From NCBI RefSeq assembly GCF_046119375.1, contig NW_027362765.1, positions 287,556,001 through 287,620,000 on the forward strand: a stretch of 64,000 bases of DNA, read 5' to 3'. This document shows positions 1 to 58,429 of the stretch, one piece after another (positions within the stretch are counted from its first letter, which is position 1; the number at the start of each line of letters is the position of its first letter). The stretch is from Phyllobates terribilis. Taxonomy: Eukaryota. The position numbers and the translations under genes were made by a program. The notes under the pieces are model-generated. The model was not told where the DNA came from. It saw only the letters and a program-made list of their open reading frames with translations, and ran no database searches.

Positions 1-3000
1 TGTACATAAAGTGCAGCACAGATTCATCTCACTGCCTCACCACTGAGCGTGTACATAAAGTGCAGCACAGATTCATGTCACTGCCTCACTACTGAGCGTG
101 TACATAAAGTGCAGCACAGATTCATCTCACTGCCTCACTACTGAGCGTGTATATAAAGTGCAGCACAGATTCATCTCACTGCCTCACTACTGAGCGTGTA
201 CATAAAGTGCAGCACAGATTCATCTCACTACTGAGCGTGTACATAAAGTGCAGCACAGATTCATGTCACTGCCTCACTACTGAGCGTGTACATAAAGTGC
301 AGCACAGATTCATCTCACTGCCTCACTACTGAGCGTGTACATAAAGTGCAGCACAGATTCATCTCACTGCCTCACTACTGAGCATGTACATAAAGTGCAG
401 CACAGATTCATCTCACTGCCTCACTACTGAGCGTGTACATAAAGTGCAGCACAGATTCATCTCACTGCCTCACTACTGAGCATGTACATAAAGTGCAGCA
501 CAGATTCATCTCACTGCCTCACTATTGAGCGTGTATATAAAGTGCAGCACAGATTCATCTCACTGCCTCACTACTGAGCGTGTACATAAAGTGCAGCACA
601 GATTCATCTCACTGCCTCACTACTGAGCGTGTACATAAAGTGCAGCACAGATTCATCTCACTACTGAGCATGTACATAAAGTGCAGCACAGATTCATCTC
701 ACAGCCTCACTACTGTGTGTACATAAAGTGCAGCACAGATTCATCTCACTACTGAGCGTGTACATTAAGTGCAGCACAGATTCATCTCACTGCCTCACTA
801 CTGAGCATGTACATAAAGTGCAGCATAGATTCATCTCACAGCCTCACTACTGAGCGTGTACATAAAGTGCAGCACAGATTCATCTCACAGCCTCACTACT
901 GAGAGTGTACATAAAGTGCAGCACAGATTCATCTCACAGCCTCACTACTGAGCGTGTACATTAAGTGCAGCACAGATTCATGTCACTGCCTCACTACTGA
1001 GCGTGTACATAAAGTGCAGCACAGATTCATCTCACTGCCTCACTACTGAGCATGTACATAAAGTGCAGCACAGATTCATCTCACAGCCTCACTACTGAGA
1101 GTGTACATAAAATGCAGCACAGATTCATCTCACTGCCTCACTACTGAGCGTGTGCATAAAGTGCAGCACAGATTCATCTCACTGCCTCACTACTGAGCGT
1201 GTACATAAAGTACAGCACAGATTCATCTCACTGCCTCACTACTGAGCATGTACATAAAGTGCAGCACAGATTCATGTCACTGCCTCACTACTGAGCGTGT
1301 ACATAAAGTGCAGCACAGATTCATCTCACTGCCTCACTACTGAGCATGTACATAAAATGCAGCACAGATTCATCTCACTGCCTCACTACTGAGCGTGTAC
1401 ATAAAGTGCAGCACAGATTCATCTCACTGCCTCACTACTGAGCGTGTACATAAAGTGCAGCACAGATTCATCTCACTGCCTCACTACTGAGCGTGTACAT
1501 AAAGTGCAGCATAGATTCATCTCACTACTGAGCATGAACATAAAGAGCAGCACAGATTCATCTCACTGCCTCACTACTGAGCGTGTACATGAAGTGCAGC
1601 ACAGATCCATCTCACTGCCTCACTACTGAGCATGTACATAAAGTGCAGCACAGATTCATCTCACTGCCTCACTACTGAGCATGTACATAAAGTGCAGCAC
1701 AGATTCATCTCACTGCCTCACTACTGAGCATGTACATAAAGTGCAGCACAGATTCATCTCACTGCCTCACTACTGAGCGTGTAAAGTGCAGCACAGATTC
1801 ATCTCACTGCCTCACTACTGAGCGTGTACAAAGTGCGGCACAGATTCATCTCACTACCTCACTACTGAGCGTGTACATAAAGTGCAGCACAGATTCATCT
1901 CACTACTGAGCGTGTACATAAAGTGCAGAACAGATTCATCTCACTGCCTCACTACTGAGCGTGTACATAAAGTGCAGCACAGATTCATCTCACTGCCTCA
2001 CTACTGAGCATGTACATAAAGTGCAGCACAGATTCATCTCACAGCCTCACTACTGAGAGTGTACATAAAGTGCAGCACAGATTCATCTCACTGCCTCACT
2101 ACTGAGCGTGTACATAAAGTGCAGCACAGATTCATCTCACAGCCTCACTACTGAGAGTGTACATAAAGTGCAGCACAGATTCATCTCACAGCCTCACTAC
2201 TGAGCGTGTACATAAAGTGCAGCACAGATTCATCTCACAGCCTCACTACTGAGCGTGTACATAAAGTGCAGCACAGATTCATCTCACTGCCTCACTACTG
2301 AGCATGTACATAAAATGCAGCACAGATTCATCTCACTGCCTCACTACTGAGCGTGTACATAAAGTGCAGCACAGATTCATCTCACTGCCTCACTACTGAG
2401 CGTGTACATAAAGTGCAGCACAGATTCATCTCACTACTGAGCGTGTACATAAAGTGCAGCAGATTCATCTCACTACTGAGCGTGTACATAAAGTGCAGCA
2501 CAGATTCATGTCACTGCCTCACTACTGAGCGTGTACATAAAGTGCAGCACAGATTCATCTCACTGCCTCACTACTGAGCATGTACATAAAATGCAGCACA
2601 GATTCATCTCACTGCCTCACTACTGAGCGTGTACATAAAGTGCAGCACAGATTCATCTCACTGCCTCACTACTGAGCGTGTACATAAAGTGCAGCACAGA
2701 TTCATCTCACTGCCTCACTACTGAGCGTGTACATAAAGTGCAGCACAGATTCATCTCACTGCCTCACTACTGAGCGTATAAAGTGCAGCACAGATTCATC
2801 TCACAGCCTCACTACTGAGCGTGTACATAAAGTGCAGCACAGATTCATCTCACTGCCTCACTACTGAGCGTGTACATAAAGTGCAGCACAGATTCATCTC
2901 ACTACCTCACTACTGAGCGTGTACATAAAGTGCAGCACAGATTCATCTCACTGCCTCACTACTGAGCATGTACATAAAATGCAGCACAGATTCATCTCAC

Positions 3001-5868
3001 TGCCTCACTACTGAGCGTGTACATAAAGTGCAGCACAGATTCATCTCACTGCCTCACTACTGAGCGTGTACATAAAGTGCAGCACAGATTCATCTCACTG
3101 CCTCACTACTGAGCGTGTACATAAAGTGCAGCACAGATTCATCTCACTGCCTCACTACTGAGCGTGTACATAAAGTACAGCACAGATTCATCTCACTGCC
3201 TCACTACTGAGCGTGTAAAGTGCAGCACAGATTCATCTCACTGCCTCACTACTGAGCGTGTACATAAAGTGCAGCACAGATTCATCTCACTGCCTCACTA
3301 CTGAGCGTGTACATAAAGTGCAGCATAGATTCATCTCACTACTGAGCATGTACATAATGAGCAGCACAGATTCATCTCACTGCGTCACTACTGAGCGTGT
3401 ACATAAAGTGCAGCACAGATTCATCTCACTGCCTCACTACTGAGCGTGTACATAAAGTGCAGCACAGATTCATGTCACTGCCTCACTACTGAGCGTGTAC
3501 ATAAAGTGCAGCACAGATTCATCTCACTACTGAGCATGTACATAATGAGCAGCACAGATTCATCTCACAGCCTCACTACTGTGTGTACATAAAGTGCAGC
3601 ACAGATTCATCTCACTACTGAGCGTGTACATTAAGTGCAGCACAGATTCATCTCACTGCCTCACTACTGAGCATGTACATAAAGTGCAGCATAGATTCAT
3701 CTCACAGCCTCACTACTGAGCGTGTACATAAAGTGCAGCACAGATTCATCTCACAGCCTCACTACTGAGCGTGTACATAAAGTGCAGCACAGATTCATGT
3801 CACTGCCTCACTACTGAGCGTGTACATAAAGTGCAGCACAGATTCATCTCACTGCCTCACTACTGAGCATGTACATAAAGTGCAGCACAGATTCATCTCA
3901 CAGCCTCACTACTGAGAGTGTACATAAAATGCAGCACAGATTCATCTCACTGCCTCACTACTGAGCGTGTGCATAAAGTGCAGCACAGATTCATCTCACT
4001 GCCTCACTACTGAGCGTGTACATAAAGTGCAGCACAGATTCATCTCACTGCCTCACTACTGAGCGTGTACATAAAGTGCAGCACAGATTCATCTCACTGC
4101 CTCACTACTGAGCGTGTACATAAAGTGCAGCACAGATTCATCTCACTGCCTCACTACTGAGCGTGTAAAGTGCAGCACAGATTCATCTCACTGCCTCACT
4201 ACTGAGCGTGTACATAAAGTGCAGCATAGATTCATCTCACTACTGAGCATGTACATAAAGAGCAGCACAGATTCATGTCACTGCCTCACTACTGAGCGTG
4301 TACATAAAGTGCAGCACAGATTCATCTCACTGCCTCACTACTGAGCATGTACATAAAGTGCAGCACAGATTCATCTCACAGCCTCACTACTGAGCGTGTA
4401 CATAAAGTGCAGCACAGATTCATCTCACTGCCTCACTACTGAGCGTGTACATAAAGTGCAGCACAGATTCATCTCACAGCCTCACTACTGAGCGTGTACA
4501 TAAAGTGCAGCACAGATTCATGTCACTGCCTCACTACTGAGCGTGTACATAAAGTGCAGCACAGATTCATGTCACTGCCTCACTACTGAGCGTGTACATA
4601 AAGTGCAGCACAGATTCATCTCACTGCCTCACTACTGAGCATGTACATAAAATGCAGCACAGATTCATCTCACTACCTCACTACTGAGCATGTACATAAA
4701 GTGCAGCACAGATTCATCTCACTGCCTCACTACTGAGCGTGTACATAAAGTGCAGCACAGATTCATCTCACTGCCTCACTACTGAGCGTGTACATAAAGT
4801 GCAGCACAGATTCATCTCACTGCCTCACTACTGAGTGTGTACATAAAGTGCAGCATAGATTCATCTCACTACTGAGCATGTACATAAAGAGCAGCACAGA
4901 TTCATCTCACTGCCTCACTACTGAGCGTGTACATGAAGTGCAGCACAGATCCATCTCACTGCCTCACTACTGAGCATGTACATAAAGTGCAGCACAGATT
5001 CATCTCACTGCCTCACTACTGAGCATGTACATAAAGTGCAGCACAGATTCATCTCACTGCCTCACTACTGAGCATGTACATAAAGTGCAGCACAGATTCA
5101 TCTCACTGCCTCACTACTGAGCATGTACAAAGTGCGGCACAGATTCATCTCACTACCTCACTACTGAGCGTGTATATAAAGTGCAGCACAGATTCATCTC
5201 ACTACTGAGCGTGTACATAAAGAGCAGCACAGATTCATCTCACTGCCTCACCACTGAGCGTGTACAGAAAGTGCAGCACAGATTCATCTCACTGCCTCAC
5301 TACTGAGCATGTACATAAAGTGCAGCACAGATTCATCTCACTACCTCACTACTGAGCATGTACATAAAGTGCAGCACAGATTCATCTCACTGCCTCACTA
5401 CTGAGCGTGTAAAGTGCAGCACAGATTCATCTCACTGCCTCACTACTGAGCGTGTACATAAAGTGCAGCACAGATTCATCTCACTACCTCACTACTGAGC
5501 GTGTATATAAAGTGCAGCACAGATTCATCTCACTGCCTCACTACTGAGCATGTACATAAAGTGCAGCACAGATTCATCTCACTGCCTCACTACTGAGCGT
5601 GTACATAAAGTGCAGCACAGATTCATCTCACTACTGAGCGTGTACATAAAGTGCAGCACAGATTCATCTCACTGCCTCACTACTGAGCATGTACATAAAG
5701 TGCAGCACAGATTCACCTCACTGCCTCACTACTCAGCGTGTACATAAAGTGCAGCACAGATTCATCTCACTGCTTCACTACTGAGCATGTACATAAAGTG
5801 CAGCACAGATTCATCTCACTGCCTCACTACTGAGCATGTACATAAAGTGCAGCACAGATTCACCTCAA
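1..5868. repeat. 49-bp tandem array (about 120 units; 41-bp and 45-bp deletion variants), open at the left window edge
   Basis: Unit TGTACATAAAGTGCAGCACAGATTCATCTCACTGCCTCACTACTGAGCG repeated head to tail; no unique spacers. Confidence 0.99.
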
Positions 5869-15722: not shown

Positions 15723-18006
15723 GGCTATGTGCCCACGATGCAGAAATGAAGCAGAAAATCTCTGCAGCATTTCTGCGTCTCCCTGGCAGAAAAAAACGTA
15801 TGCAGATTGTGCATGCGTTTTTCCTGCAGAATACATGCGGATCCACATGCGGATTCACTTGCGTTTCCGCATGCAGATTGACAAGCGCTTTCCAGGCGAT
15901 AGCATCACTTGGAAAGTGCTTGACAACTAGGTCACACTGTATAAATCCATGCAAACAGCATGGATTTATACAGTGTGAACCGTAAAAATTAAAACAAATA
16001 AAGCTATACTCACCCCCGAGGCCCCGGTGTGTGCAGCAGCGCTCGTTCCTGTCTGGTTCCTGGCTGCCGGCATATCGCGAGACAGAGCGGTGAAGGGCCT
16101 GTGGTCACATGACTGTGACGTCACCGAAGGTCCTTCAGCGCTGCCGGCATTCAGAGAGAAGCCGCCGGACAGGTGAGTATAAACTTTATTTGTTATTTAA
16201 TTCTTTTTTTACAGGTACAATGGTACCCAGGTCTGGAGGAGAGTCTCATCTCCTCCAGACTTGGGTACCATCCGCACATAGAAACGCATAGAAGCCGCTT
16301 GTACAAATGTACAGACACAGATTCTATGCGTCTCAATGCAAGTCAATGGCGGGAGTTCCGCTGCACTTCCGCAAAATTAAATGACATGCTGCGGATTTTT
16401 GTACGCAGCATGTGCATAGAACATGCGGAATCCCCTTGGGGACCATGGGGTGCGGATTACCTAGCGTTTTACAAGCGTTTCCGCTGCGGAAATTCCGCAG
16501 CATAAACGCTTGGAAAACGCTGAGGCTGTGTGCCCACGTTATGTATTACAAGCGTATATGCTGCGGAATTTCCGCAGCGTAAACGCTTGTAAAATGCATG
16601 TATATCCGCACCCCATGGTCCCCAATGGCATTCCGCAATGTCAATGCCCATGCTGCGGATTTTTCCGCAGCGTATATGCTGCGGTCAAAAATCCGCAGCA
16701 TGTTCATTAATTTTGCGGAAGCGCAGCGGAATCAATGTGCGGATGGTACCCAAGTCTGGATGAGAGGAGACTCTCATCCAGACCTGGGTACCAAAGAACC
16801 TGTAAAAAAAAGAAAAAATAAAGTTTATACTTATCTTCTGATGTCTTCCCGGTGTTTTCCAAGCCGTCGCGCTGTTGTGTGAAGGACCTGCCACGTCATT
16901 GAGTCATGTGACCCATCACATGACTCAATGACGTCACCGCAGGTCCTGCACACAACAGCGTGAGCCGCTCAAGACTCCGGACGGGGCACAGAATGCATCG
17001 GAAAGTGAGTATAAACTTTATTTTTTTATTTTTTACCATTCTGATTCTTTTTTTTTAACTATTACTTGGTCACACTATATAAATCCATGCCGGTTGCATG
17101 AATTTATATAGTGTGAACAAGTAGTCAAGCACTTTTCCAAGTGATGCTTAAATCACTTGGAGAAGTGCTTGATAACCCGCATGCGGAAATGCATGCAAAA
17201 ACGCTGCAAAGACGCCTCACAAACGCTTCTACCTGGCGGGAAAACCGCATGTAAAATCTGCATGCGATTTTCCCGCCAGGGAGAAGCGTGAAAAATATGC
17301 TTCAGTTCCGCAACGTGGGCACATAGCCTGACAAGCGCTTTCCAGGTGATTTTAGCATCACTTGGAAAGTGCTTGACAACTAGGTCACAGTATATAAATC
17401 CATGCAACCGGCATGGATTTATATAGTGTGACTGTAAGAATGTTTAAAAAAAAAAAAAAAAAAACCTATACTTACCCTCTGATGGCCCGGCGTGTGTAGC
17501 TGCGCTCGCTCCTGTCTGCCAGCTGATCGCGGGACACTGCACTGAAGGGCCTGCGGTCACATGACTGTGACGTCACCGCAGGTCCTTCAGTCCTGCCCGC
17601 AAGCACAGGGAAGGAGACCAGGGGCCGTCGGAAGGTGAATATAATCTTTATTTATTATTTTATTCTTTTTTTTACAGGTACAATGGTACCCAGGTCTGAA
17701 TGAGAGTCTCCTCTCCTCCAGAACTGGGTACCATCTGCACATTGAAACGCATATAATCCGTGAGTACAAATGTACAGACACGGATTATATGCGTCTCAAT
17801 GCAAGTCAATGGCGGGAGTTCCGCTGCACTTCCGCAAAATTAATGGACATGCTGCAGATTTTTGAGCGCTGCAGAATCCGCAGCATGGGCATAGAACTTG
17901 CGGAATCCCCTTGGGGACCATAGGGGGCCGATTACCTAGCGTTTAACAAGTGTTTACGCTGCGGAAATTCCGCAGCATATATGCTTGAAAAACGCTACGT
18001 GGGCCC
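15723..18006. mobile_element. Three copies (+, -, + truncated) of an approximately 0.8-kb Harbinger-like MITE
   Basis: Termini GGCT(A/G)TGTGCCCACG; copy 16524-17328 flanked by TGA on both sides; shared internal hairpins. Confidence 0.8.
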
Positions 18007-18540
18007 TTAGGCTATGTGCACACGATGCAGAAATGCTGCATATTTTTTGCGCTTCTCCCTGGCAGGAAAAACGCATGCAGATTTTACATGCGTTTTTCCC
18101 GCCAGGTAGAAGCGTTTGTCAAGCGTTTTTTCATGCATTTCTGTATGCGGGTTATAAAGCGCTTTCCAAGCGCTTTTAGCATCACTTGGAAAAGTGCTTG
18201 ACAACTTGTTCACACTATATAAATCCATGCAACCGACATGGATTTTATATAGTGTGACCAAGTTAGTTAAAAAATAGAATAAGAATGGTAAAAAATAAAA
18301 AAAACAGGAATTATTCCTACCGTTAATTACATTTCCAGGAGTCCATCATAACGGCACAACAGGAGTTAAGTCCTCTGTTCCTCTAGGGACAGGAAACACA
18401 TGAGAGGTTAAAAGCCCCCCCCATCACACCCTCAGTGTTAGTACTAATCACCAAACCAGGATGGATGCAACTCTATTTTATTATATACATATACCAATGT
18501 TACATTCACATTAGTGTCAAGAGCAGGGGCGGGAAATATG

Positions 18541-18630
18541 GTGTCGTTATGATGGACTCCTGGAAACGTAATTAACGGTAGGAATAATTCCTATTTTACC
18601 AGTACGTCCATCATAACGGCACGACAGGAG
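18541..18630. other. DIRS internal complementary region (ICR)
   Basis: 18541-18592 complements 18306-18357; 18595-18630 complements 21387-21422. Confidence 0.93.
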
Positions 18631-18658
18631 ACATACCAAATCAAAAGAAATGGAACAT

Positions 18659-20221
18659 TTAGGGCGGGACTACTGCTTGAAGGACTTTACGGCCATAGGC
18701 TAATTGTTGACTGGACAATACATCCAATTTATAATGTTTACTAAATGTGGATATATTGGACCAGGTTGCTGCCTGGCAAATTTGGCTCACTGACGCTCCA
18801 GCTTTCTCTGCCCAAGAAGCGGAGATTGCCCGAGTAGAATGAGCTTTAAGTGAAATTGGTGGATCCTTCCCCTCAGGTTCATACGCGAGGGCGATAGTCC
18901 TTGTCAACCACTTTGCTAGAGTCGGCTTAGAAGCTTTCTTGCCCTTATTCACACCCGAAAACTGCAGAAAAAGGTTTGAGCCTCTCCTCCAGGGGGCTGT
19001 GATTTCTATATACCGAACAATTGCCCTCCTGATGTCCAAGGTATGGAAGGATTTTTCCTTTTCATTTTTGGGGGACTGGCAGAAAGACGGCAGTATTATC
19101 TCTTGATTCAGGTTCGAACTGGACACCACCTTAGGGTGAAAGGAGGGATCCAGTTTAAGAACCAATATGTCCTCCAGAATCTTAAGGTATGGGTCCAGAA
19201 CTGAGAGAGCCTGGATCTCGCCTACCCGTTTCGCTGTAGTAACTGCCACAAGAAAGGCTGATTTCATAGAAAGCAGGTCTACTGATGTTTCTTCTAGGGG
19301 TTCAAAGGGAGACTTACATAAAGCCCTCAACACCAGGTTCAGATCCCACGGCGGTACTAGACTCCTTATCGTGGGTTTTAAACGAGAAGTTGCTTTTATG
19401 AACCTTGATATCCATGGGTGGTCTATTAAGGAGTAGTCCAAAAAAGCACTTAGGGCCGAGATATGAACTTTTAACGTATTTGGCCTCAGACCCTTATCAA
19501 TCCCCTCTTGGAGGAAATCCAATATCGTTGGAATATTGGGGCGAGATGAATTTCCCACAGACTGACCTGCAAAGCTACAGAACTGTTTCCAAATCCTAGT
19601 ATAGATGGCTGACGTTACTGGTTTCCTACAGGCTTGTAGAGTTGTAATTACCCGATGGGAAAGGCCCTTAGAGGCTAGGATCCGCCTCTCAGGTTCCATG
19701 CTGTCAATTGGAGGAATTGGATGTTCGGATGTAACAAGGGACCCTGCAATAGAAGATCTCTCCTGGCTGGGAGATCCACCGCCATCCGGTGTAGCAGAGG
19801 GAACCAGCTCTTTTTGGGTCAGTAAGGCGCTATCAGAATAAGAGCTCCCCTCTCCTGTTGGATTTTCCTTAGTACTCTTGAGATGAGAGGGACTGGAGGA
19901 AAGGCGTACACCAGTTTTGTCCCCCATGATTGAGAAAGGGCATCTATTCCTTCTGGGCTGTCGGCTGGGTCCAAGGAAAAAAAGCGCTGCAGGTTCCTGT
20001 TTTTTCTTGTTGCGAACAGGTCTATGAACGGGGTGCCCCATCGTTGAATGATTTGGTGAAACACCTCCGGATTCAGCTCCCAATCTGAGGGACCAACCCT
20101 GAAATTTGACGACCTGTGTAGGGATTGAAGGACTAATATATCCTGCCATAGACTTTTGAGATCCACGGGGGAGCGAGGACGAGTGATTTGGAAATGACGA
20201 GGGGGGGGGGGGGGGGGGCAT
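18659..20221 (-). CDS. DIRS tyrosine recombinase; open 520-codon frame, recombinase domain from about 19699 (346 aa)
   Basis: KRVGE, PKV, HSTR, ATWS, KHY motifs (R-K-H-x-x-R-W-Y); PWDLNLVL motif; no stops. Confidence 0.92.
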   Translation of the reverse strand: MPPPPPPSSFPNHSSSLPRGSQKSMAGYISPSIPTQVVKFQGWSLRLGAESGGVSPNHSTMGHPVHRPVRNKKKQEPAALFFLGPSRQPRRNRCPFSIMGDKTGVRLSSSPSHLKSTKENPTGEGSSYSDSALLTQKELVPSATPDGGGSPSQERSSIAGSLVTSEHPIPPIDSMEPERRILASKGLSHRVITTLQACRKPVTSAIYTRIWKQFCSFAGQSVGNSSRPNIPTILDFLQEGIDKGLRPNTLKVHISALSAFLDYSLIDHPWISRFIKATSRLKPTIRSLVPPWDLNLVLRALCKSPFEPLEETSVDLLSMKSAFLVAVTTAKRVGEIQALSVLDPYLKILEDILVLKLDPSFHPKVVSSSNLNQEIILPSFCQSPKNEKEKSFHTLDIRRAIVRYIEITAPWRRGSNLFLQFSGVNKGKKASKPTLAKWLTRTIALAYEPEGKDPPISLKAHSTRAISASWAEKAGASVSQICQAATWSNISTFSKHYKLDVLSSQQLAYGRKVLQAVVPP

Positions 20222-20340
20222 GGGAGAAGTCTATTTTGAAACCTTCCCCTAAGAAACGTATGATCCATTGATTTTTTGTAATGGACGCCCACTTGTCCTG
20301 AAAGAAAAGAAGCCTGCCCCCTACTCCAATGGCGTCATGG
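19675..20340 (-). pseudogene. DIRS pol remnant: N-terminus fused to the methyltransferase-like C-terminal domain; RT and RNase H absent
   Basis: VGGRLLFF...GFKIDF, then DLFAT...YAFPP...IAPY*; frameshift at an 18-nt homopolymer (20201-20218); TGA at 19819-19821 where Trp is expected. Confidence 0.85.
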
Positions 20341-20741
20341 TCTAGCTGGCCTAGGTCTTTTCTGGCGAGGAGAGGGTTGAACTATTTGGGGTGACGGCTG
20401 TGTACGGGAAGGCATGAGGCTCGAGACTGTACTCTGGACCTCCTCACGAATCATAGATCTTATATCCGTCAAAAAGGCTATACATTTTTTACACAGCCAC
20501 TTTTTATATGAGTCCTGAAGCTTCGTGTTACAGTCTACACATCGTCTTGATTTTTTGGAAGAAGATCCAGACCTCTGGGTTCCCCTCTCCTAATCCATAT
20601 AAAAATATAAAAGGACACTGGAGATTTACTATAAAAACCTGTCCTAGAATACTCTGATTTATCCAGAGAAGGGCCTAAGGCTGTACTCACACTGCCCAGG
20701 GACTCTGAAGGGGCTTCTGACCGTGAAGGATTAGCTTCCAT
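20335..20741 (-). CDS. DIRS mini-gag, 101 aa after splicing: join(20691-20741,20335-20589)
   Basis: gacaccATGG Kozak; gtgagt...ttag 101-nt intron; spliced frame gives CVDC-x12-CKKC and ends CCA TGA overlapping the pol start. Confidence 0.72.
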
Positions 20742-22249
20742 GGTGTCAGTGTGTGATCCAGGTGGTAGCCACGCCCCCAACGATAATCGCTATTCTTAAT
20801 GCCCTGGAGGCTCATCACTGCCTCCGGGCACCTGTGCGTTCTGGGTGCCGAAGCCCCTCTTCTCAATGTCGGAAGGAGAAGCGGCGTGCGCTCCACCCTG
20901 GAACGCACGCTGGCCAAAGCGGATGTCCGCCCTTCTGACTCCGCCTCCCGGGCGGATGTCACGCACCGCGCTCGGCGTGCGCTCCACCCTGGAACGCACA
21001 CCGGCCCCAAAGCGGATGTTCGCCCTGATGACTCCGCCTCCCGCCGGAAGCCATACACCGCGCTCCTCCGTGGAGCGCACGCCGGCCTTTCAGCCGGTGG
21101 GATAGCGCAACGCACAGAGCCCCCTGTCCGGGGGATACAGCGGCAAGCGGCGGTCTTCTGGCTGAGGGACCCCGCAAAGGGGTATCAGCATGGAGCCTCT
21201 GGACCGAAGGAAGGGGAGAGTTCTCAGACCCCCCCCAATCCCCCTGGCTCTCAGGTAACTTCTATCTTCGGAGAACCTCTCCATAGCGTCCTGTCCTGCT
21301 AGGGACAGGAAAAACACTGAGGGTGTGATGGGGGGGGCTTTTAACCGCTCATGTGTTTCCTGTCCCTAGAGGAACAGAGGACTTAACTCCTGTCGTGCAG
21401 TTATGATGGACGTACTGGTAAATAAAGTTTATACTCACCTTCCGGTGTCCTCCCGGTGTTATCTCTGCTGAGTCTGGTGTGTTGGGCGGCTCACGGTGGT
21501 GTGAAGGACCTGCGGTGAAGTCATTGAGCCATGTGATGGGTCACATGACTCAGTGACGTCATGGCAGGTCCTTCACAACAGCGTGAGCAATGCAAGAGAC
21601 CGGACGGAGCAGACAAAACACCGGGAGGACATCGGAAGGAGAGTATAAACTTTATTTTTTATTTTCAATTCTTTTTTTTTTTTACAGTTTCTATGGTACC
21701 CGGGTCTGGATGAGAGTCTCCTCTCCTCCAGACTTGGGTACCATCCGCACATAGAAACGCATAATATCCGTGTGTACAAATGTACTGACACGGATTATAT
21801 GCGTCTCAATGCAAGTCAATGGCGGCGATTACGCTGCGTGTCCGCAAAATTAATGGACATGCTGCGGATTTTTGAGCGCAGCATAAACTCAGCGGAAAAA
21901 TCCGCAGCATGGGCATTGACATTGCGGCTCATCATTGGGGACTATGGGGGGCGGATTACCAAGCGTTTCCAAAGCTTTTATGCTGCGGAAATTCCGCAGC
22001 ATATACGCTTGTAAAATGCTACGTGGGCACATACCCTGACTCTGTAATGTCTTTATTGTCTGTACAAGTTCCCTCTGAAATGTAAAGTGCTGCGGAATAT
22101 GTTGGCGCTATAGAAATAAAAATGATTATTTTTGCATTAGTGGCACTTAACTTTCTAGCCTTTTGTTAACCCTCGCCCAACTTTGAGATTTGTTGCTGCC
22201 ATCAATTTCTAAATGAGTTTTTTTTCAAATGAAATGGAAAAATGTCTAA

Positions 22250-57417: not shown

Positions 57418-58260
57418 GGCTATGTGCCCAAATGCAGAAATGCTCCGGATTTTTTCCTGAGCGTTTCTACATGTCCCCTGGCAGAAAAAAACACATGCGG
57501 ATTGTACATGCGGATTGTACATGCGGATTGTACATGCGTTTTCCTGCCAGGGACATGCGGATGTGAAGCGTTCTTCACATGCATTTCTGCATGCGGGTTG
57601 ACAAGCGATTTTAGCATCACTTGGAAAGTGCTTGACAACTTGGTCACACTATATAAATCCATGCAACCGACATGGATTTATATAGTGTGACCGAAAGAAT
57701 GGTAAAAAATAAATATTAAACTTACCTTCTGATGGCCCCCGGTCTCCATAGCGATCCGTCCTGGCTTCCCGGCGGCTCGCGGTGGTCTAAAAGGACCTGT
57801 GGTGACGTCATTTAGTCATGTGACAGGTCACGCGACCGCCGACGTCAGTGGTCGCGTGACCCGTCACATGACTAAATGACGTCATGGCAAGTCCTTTTTA
57901 GACCAGGACGGATCGCTGTGGAGACCGGGGGCCATCAGAAGGTAAGTATAATGTTTATTTTTTATTTTATTCTTTTTTTTTTACAGGTTCTACGGTACCC
58001 GGGACCAGAGGAGAGTCTCCTCTTCTCCAAACCCTGGTACCATCCGCACATTGAAACGCATGATATCCGCATTTGTAGATGCAGTGATGCGGATGTCATG
58101 CGGTCCAATGCAAGCCAATGGCGGTGAAAATGCCGCGATTTCGCAAAATAATTGGTAGTGCTGCGGATTTTTCCGCAATGATAATCTGCAGCGGAAATTT
58201 CCGCAGCATGTGCACAGCACATGCGGATTATCATTGGGGAACATTGCAGGCCTTCTACCA
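57418..58260 (+). mobile_element. Fifth copy of the approximately 0.8-kb Harbinger-like MITE family
   Basis: TAA|GGCTATGTGCCCA start; same internal hairpins as 15723-22036. Confidence 0.8.
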
Positions 58261-58429
58261 AACGTTTTTTAAGCATTTCTGCAGCAGGTTAGTAACCCCA
58301 TATCTGCACTGTAATAGTGGTTTTCTGGTGACAGGTTCTATTTAAGAACTAAATTCAACGTAAAGAAGAACATGGAGTCCTGGAAGTGATGATATGGCCC
58401 CCACAGTGCCCTAATCTCAACATCATGAT

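Follow-up and report, generated by a model that had tools for sequence, protein, structure and literature searches.

The gag region of a retrotransposon in this 64,000-nucleotide stretch of Phyllobates terribilis DNA, hereafter the window, reads as two exons separated by a short intron. The locus thus raises the question of whether the intron is real, how it would persist in an element that is copied through RNA, and whether the 101-aa protein encoded by the two joined exons has any meaning of its own. How a retroelement keeps an intron through its RNA stage is presented as an open question for Penelope-like elements (PMC8557442, partial text). The answer considered probable here is that gag carries a real phase-0 intron, lost exactly in seven genomic copies, that this intron is likely kept through the use of two different RNAs, and that the 101-aa product of the window is likely a by-product of deletions.

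The DIRS element and its gag reading frame

The element is a DIRS-like tyrosine-recombinase (YR) retrotransposon, and the features that define this group are found in the window copy itself or, for some of them, in its relatives. Its main parts are the following:

18302..21424, minus strand: internally deleted DIRS-like tyrosine-recombinase retrotransposon of ~3.1 kb (relatives ~5.4 kb; right end placed within a few bases)
21313..21421, minus strand: left inverted terminal repeat, 109 nt, 94.5% identical to the right repeat
18332..18439, minus strand: right inverted terminal repeat
18541..18630, minus strand: internal complementary region (ICR), complementary to both element ends
20882..21065, minus strand: two 93-nt GC-rich units of a tandem repeat in the leader, possible upstream promoter elements
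18659..20230, minus strand: open frame with tyrosine recombinase (Phage_integrase E 0.0017, below the Pfam cut-off)
19819..20097, minus strand: pol methyltransferase remnant with a premature stop at its end (Dam E 7e-4, below the Pfam cut-off)
20097..20120, minus strand: short island between the 981-nt and 249-nt in-frame deletions that remove reverse transcriptase (RT) as well as RNase H, from alignment to relatives
20201..20218, minus strand: C run grown to 18 (+11 relative to the reference copy), shifting the pol and ORF3 frames

Two segments of the ICR, 18630-18595 and 18597-18541, pair with the two ends of the element, which has TTT termini and is inserted within a T run of another repeat; empty-site copies of this host repeat are found at ~16175, ~17007 and ~21641. 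The host repeat is palindrome-rich, occurs in several copies at window 15890-18300, 21430-22040 and 57600-58290, and is probably a non-autonomous DNA transposon. Elsewhere in the window, positions 1-5867 are occupied by a satellite array whose 49-nt unit is repeated ~123 times and shows higher-order spacing.

Relatives at ~97% DNA identity measure 5.4 kb and encode a LAP2alpha Gag, RT, RNase H and recombinase. The LAP2alpha domain of their ORF1 (E 7e-15 and 3.4e-15) is deleted from the window copy, as are the RVT_1 (E 8.7e-21) and RT_RNaseH (E 5e-6) domains recognized in the related copy L136. The recombinase frame of the window copy retains R, HxxR and Y of what we take to be the catalytic set. 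The same organization is described for Xenopus DIRS-like elements, which share the LAP2alpha ORF1, the RT/RNase H/methyltransferase frame, the tyrosine recombinase, the ICR, the TTT ends and inverted repeats of ~110-120 nt; in contrast to that account, the window family joins the start of gag to a cysteine motif by splicing (PMC9210276, partial text).

A protein search with the full natural Gag returns 40 matches, the nearest named ones belonging to hylid-line frogs and toads, and a search with only a region of exon 2 gives no match. Among P0001-P0054, many frog RefSeq entries that bear the name "lamina-associated polypeptide 2-like" are in fact DIRS Gag, with the cysteine motif behind a leader of 25-45 residues. 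Numerous DIRS copies (L002-L019 and L074-L079, on C5, C659 and small contigs) are almost identical, carry frame breaks and have their flanks in common; they have spread through segmental or tandem duplication, not transposition. At another locus (L048, G000:C37:5692600-5700600), a cut copy of the main family is followed immediately by a second, different DIRS element.

The gag gene of the window copy is composed of the following features:

20691..20741, minus strand: coding part of gag exon 1, 17 codons from a Kozak ATG
20590..20690, minus strand: spliceosomal GT-AG intron of 101 nt, phase 0
20335..20589, minus strand: remnant of gag exon 2, 84 codons and the family's own TGA (430-432 codons and the same stop in relatives)
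20482..20541, minus strand: CxxC-x12-CxxC motif, a predicted zinc finger

A re-reading of the sequence agrees with the initial annotation on the ATG at 20741 (gacaccATGG, minus strand) and its 17 codons, the intron running from GTGAGT to TTAG at 20690-20590, the 84 open codons with CVDC-x12-CKKC, the stop ending at 20335 and the 101-aa length of the joined product. The unspliced frame, described as missing the cysteines, does stop after 68 codons without reaching them, and the large gag deletion, said to leave the frame open, removes 1017 nt and is in frame relative to the relatives. A scan for a Kozak ATG, a GTRAGT donor, a YAG acceptor and a product of at least 100 aa, run over the whole window in both orientations, has a single match, the gag site. 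All 21 aligned proteins, which were picked because they have the motif, share the four cysteines without exception. Frog DIRS ORF1 is mis-started when read from DNA alone, with the predicted zinc finger being reached only by splicing. This has consequences for repeat libraries and for the numerous "LAP2-like" gene models of frogs that represent DIRS gag.

The end of gag is organized differently from what had been described, namely a TGA overlapping the start of pol. The overlapping ATG opens only five codons, MTPLE in the window and in three of four relatives and MRPLE in the fourth, followed by a stop, and is thereby ruled out as the pol start; the pol frame is a different one and enters ~60 codons upstream in full copies. 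Other candidates fare no better: the CAG of a splice acceptor at 20298 leading into the pol frame is lost in 2 close and 6 distant of 15 copies, and an ATG at ~19699 proper to the recombinase has no support, being missing in 2 of the 12 copies inspected. ORF3 continues the frame of the gag TGA (20335-20337, in a TGA-C context), as it does in the four relatives inspected, and pol overlaps the end of gag with no ATG of its own. This arrangement suggests read-through and frameshifting.

Conservation and exact loss of the gag intron

All of the first 30 loci compared (window included, many of them near-identical duplicates) have a 51-nt exon 1 and, behind it, 100-102 nt that open with GTGAGT and finish with TTAG; read without splicing, each of them meets a stop after 29-70 codons. 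In four of the 30, exon 2 stays open for 430-432 codons, up to the stop that the window also uses. A wider set of 145 loci was reduced to 82 distinct ones, from which six without the intron and five without a homologous exon 1 were dropped, leaving 71 copies for analysis. The initial annotation had asked whether related copies keep GT/AG and phase 0. Both splice-site dinucleotides are kept in 65 of the 71 (GT in 67, AG in 69), the ATG is present in 65, and the length of exon 1 is a multiple of three in 69. The intron itself ranges from 74 to 120 nt, and its three length classes modulo 3 hold 28, 13 and 30 of the 71 copies. Between L049 and the 16 most distant copies, identity is 79% over exon 1, 40% over the intron and 69% over exon 2. 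This is the signature of a U2-type intron, in which the GTRAGT donor and the AG acceptor are kept while the interior drifts. Two distant copies (L146 and L147) show GC instead of GT at the donor, and may represent either GC-AG introns or decay.

The same layout extends beyond the main family. A search with a distant frog Gag led to 30 loci, of which 19 were examined (the rest being main family) and, after exclusion of five without a readable cysteine motif, 14 were left. Inspection by eye of these loci, which cover four more distant DIRS families, shows that 10 of the 14 have kept a GTRAGT donor, at 51-54 nt from a Kozak ATG that precedes it, or in one of these ten at 42 nt after a short deletion, and TAG/G ahead of the cysteine frame in all 14.

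The decisive observations come from copies in which the intron is missing. An exact motif for the joined exons has 6 matches in the genome and the donor motif 140, while the reversed controls have 0 and 0. A looser joined motif has 10 matches, consisting of four known intron-less copies, a new one (L153) and five with changed donors. Precisely intron-less genomic copies therefore total seven, six from the exact motif plus L153. The six were fetched whole: five have both terminal repeats and the ICR, and the sixth is without its first 195 nt. In L153 the left repeat is present and exon 2 is interrupted. The intron-less copies retain the whole leader and the left repeat.

These losses are scattered over the family. 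In a tree of gag exon 2, built with no intron letters, the six intron-less copies occupy five places among intron-bearing ones, and L153, whose nearest copies by leader distance bear the intron, adds a sixth. The loss events number six or seven, since L056 and L057, mutual nearest neighbors in the leader and 1.5% apart overall, are as close to each other as L056 is to an intron-bearing copy; in this case, a single intron-less element may have given rise to one further copy. Because seven genomic copies of at least six independent origins lack exactly the GT-to-AG stretch, the gag intron of this DIRS lineage is real, of phase 0 and family-wide, and the initial annotation's proposal of an intron in a retrotransposon gag is supported.

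It could still be argued that the splice signals are there by chance and that the exact losses are ordinary deletions, in a family that suffers many deletions and for which no spliced read has been seen in the runs aligned (not on record as RNA). This explanation is in practice refuted: it would need the same stretch to be lost to the base in seven copies from at least six lineages, although GT..AG ends occur in none of ten ordinary deletions of large size that were checked, among them the five of the window copy, and it leaves the signals being kept while the intron interior drifts. A full-length relative with the cysteine motif in an uninterrupted frame had been named beforehand as evidence against the intron. 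Such a relative exists, as the intron-less copy L126 encodes a LAP2alpha Gag of 449 aa that begins at the same ATG and has no break, but its frame arose through exact intron loss, and the case therefore speaks for the intron.

Spliced RNA initiated in the repeat is thus reverse-transcribed and integrated through the element's own pathway in about 4-5% of insertions, a value that compares the matches of two exact motifs differing in length and is not a census. Intron-less copies seldom spread, and no large lineages have been founded from them. The genome in this way records numbers on intron retention: about one insertion in 20-25 derives from spliced RNA and, because such copies seldom found lineages, the intron appears to be under selection.

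Spliceosomal introns are reportedly mentioned for some DIRS or Ngaro elements by Goodwin and Poulter in 2004 and by Poulter and Butler in 2015. The words "intron" and "splic" are absent from the main text of the Xenopus account (PMC9210276, partial text, supplements aside), "intron" is absent from PMC3266345 and PMC6681497, and the portions available of PMC4495291 (the origin of LAP2alpha aside), PMC3212892 and PMC5890265 contain nothing relevant on DIRS introns. Overall, the literature search, supplements aside, brought up no listing that deals with introns in the gag of amphibian DIRS elements or with DIRS copies from which the intron is exactly missing. New here are the genomic proof and the rate of splicing in the copied RNA, together with a conserved promoter-exon-intron plan in which the promoter is predicted.

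Retention of the intron through the RNA stage

If 4-5% of insertions lose the intron irreversibly, it would be expected to vanish over the many copying rounds between these families unless intron-less copies do worse. The mechanism proposed here involves two RNAs. A predicted internal TATA promoter would direct the synthesis of a short-leader gag mRNA that is spliced, and the long RNA starting in the left terminal repeat would stay mostly unspliced and provide the template for copying. Intron-less copies would be selected against, most simply through a lower Gag output.

A TATA-like box (TATAAAA, TTTAAAA or TATTTAA) lies 39-53 nt above the ATG in six of the seven leaders inspected, kept in leaders that are otherwise dissimilar to each other; L180, from one distant family, has no clear TATA box. 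Initiator-like letters are found near +30 in some leaders. The long leader that starts in the left repeat contains 6-10 upstream ATGs in four copies. Among the intron-less copies, L129 (G000:C7:270397000-270404500) has also lost its TATA box, via a separate short deletion. Eight runs, in the form of contigs and none on record as RNA, were considered, four of them presumed to be RNA and four of unknown type. Four of the eight, possibly DNA, were aligned to L049 and reveal five joints, none of them at the intron, which the contigs cross unspliced. Some runs have reduced coverage in the part above the TATA box, but contigs cannot show a start.

The same facts might be explained by one promoter and one RNA from the left repeat, which is spliced with low efficiency, or on which Gag bound close to the 5' end blocks splicing, and whose unspliced part is packaged, the TATA-like box being no promoter at all. 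The whole leader and left repeat of the intron-less copies do indicate that repeat-initiated RNA can be spliced, and an intron placed near the 5' end is partly retained in DIRS-1 cDNA (PMC7192593, partial text). However, a single RNA leaves unexplained why a TATA-like sequence is kept at this position while the leaders around it diverge, and its many upstream ATGs would hinder scanning from the repeat. A single RNA is accordingly regarded as unlikely, and two RNAs remain the preferred reading.

A further element of the leader may take part in this division. Each of the five DIRS families inspected (examples are L049, L159, L161, L164 and L180) has a CAG/GTRAG motif, located 3-10 nt above its TATA box, that varies in the manner of a 5' splice site. 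Splicing from this upstream CAG/GTAAG to the gag acceptor has left no joined copy in the genome (0 matches), and joints to other next letters have 0 and 1 matches, the one being a point change. It could be speculated, as a guess drawn from the leader sequences, that the motif restrains splicing. In the corresponding programme, which is put forward tentatively and is rather less probable than its negation, CAG/GTRAG would occur only in the long RNA and mark it for intron retention and copying, the short RNA would be spliced for Gag, and the 4-5% leak would give rise to near-dead-end copies. If this programme is true, these near-dead-ends constitute a natural experiment on why a retroelement keeps its intron. 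The use of one donor with several acceptors was also considered and has no support: a scan for alternative acceptors, made with no control, lists 16 conserved AG sites, and exon 1 is joined to another acceptor in none of the 10 looser-motif matches, a search that covers exons starting with G.

Another possible role of the intron, instead of export or translation, would be mainly to shield the element from HUSH-type silencing, which is directed at retroelements without introns. In human cells, the repression of reporters by HUSH is counteracted by introns (PMC8770142, partial text), and the rarity with which intron-less DIRS copies spread in this genome would fit such a role. In the same reporter system, nevertheless, a small artificial intron is unprotective and protection rises with length (PMC8770142, partial text), while the DIRS intron measures 74-120 nt; moreover, that work was done in human and not in amphibian cells. 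A protective role of this kind is therefore held to be improbable.

The closest precedents for the use of two RNAs come from other groups of retroelements. BARE1 and copia have two RNA pools, and resemble the proposed arrangement in their pair of TATA boxes and in the use of one RNA, which is spliced, for Gag and of another, which is left unspliced, for copying (PMC3735527, partial text). Penelope-like elements share an intron near an internal promoter that survives retrotransposition, although theirs is located in the 5' UTR, and their enzymes (GIY-YIG) and copying route differ (PMC8557442, partial text). Dictyostelium DIRS-1 belongs to the same order, is copied in an ICR-dependent manner and partly retains an engineered 5' intron in its cDNA; unlike the frog intron, that one is an artificial marker and not a natural part of gag (PMC7192593, partial text).

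The 101-aa product of the window copy

According to the initial annotation, splicing creates a miniature Gag. In the relatives, splicing makes the full Gag of 447-449 aa, and the short product is specific to one deleted copy. Three deletion junctions are involved:

20477..20478, minus strand: point at which 27 nt are missing in frame, directly after the last cysteine and within the helix that follows the motif, unremarked in the initial annotation
20349..20350, minus strand: junction of the 1017-nt in-frame gag deletion, which removes the LAP2alpha core, in a single copy
20755..20756, minus strand: junction of a 37-nt deletion removing the CAGGTAAG motif and the TATAAAAG box of relatives (36-43 nt missing relative to 10 of 10 aligned relatives)

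The last of these deletions, equally unremarked before, is placed 14 nt above the ATG and takes away the TATA box kept by relatives; the leader of the window copy contains 5 upstream ATGs. The protein is left without the LAP2alpha core and without nine residues of the helix behind the cysteines. The motif of the gag deletion junction has one match in the 10.6 Gb genome, and the pol junctions are spanned by the window copy alone among 40 scored of 281 candidates. By the exact motif and among these 40 scored candidates, no second copy sharing the deletions, as an amplified non-autonomous mini-element would leave, was found. Because it is single-copy, has no LAP2alpha core and has lost the TATA box, the 101-aa mini-Gag is probably debris of one deleted copy.

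The pattern of the deletions invites a different interpretation, in which the window copy is a selected miniature, whose products would be a mini-Gag with the zinc finger and, if the TGA is read through, a fusion of mini-Gag and recombinase; it would have been kept as a mobile lineage that is non-autonomous, or because it serves the host. Relative to its relatives, the copy has coding deletions of 27, 1017, 981, 249 and 12 nt (window 19773-20478), all multiples of three, and none of the five has the GT..AG ends of an intron. Only 4 of the 27 private deletions in 25 other close copies are in frame (Fisher p = 0.0006), and the excess persists for the three deletions outside gag (p = 0.009); the locus, though, was picked on account of two of its five deletions. 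Indels of 1-2 nt are absent from 1920 aligned coding bases, as they also are in 2 of 22 other close copies (3 of 25 with L126, L133 and L137 counted). The recombinase frame is open and has its catalytic residues, and ORF3 follows in frame after the gag TGA in the relatives inspected, but in the window copy the expansion of the C run shifts the frame between gag and recombinase. Private changes are few: in the recombinase, six nonsynonymous to two synonymous do not depart from those of the other, neutral copies (121 to 61, p = 1.0), and the gag remnant has 0 to 1. Together with the single-copy state and the missing TATA box, the shifted frame and the recombinase ratio make a selected miniature improbable. 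The fact that all the deletions are in frame is poorly explained by pure decay, and the excess beyond the two for which the locus was picked may be chance. Debris remains the probable interpretation, and the mini-Gag matters little unless its in-frame deletions prove to be selected.

The fold of the cysteine motif was also modelled. A single-sequence structure model gives one long helix and is uninformative, and a search of solved structures has 0 matches at E 0.001, with weak rows rich in LIM, S14/S29, GATA and PHD fingers. The structure model of the motif predicts a hairpin followed by a helix, with pLDDT values of 81-94 over residues 11-50, and this hairpin and helix with four cysteines may correspond to a fold resembling the treble-clef zinc finger.
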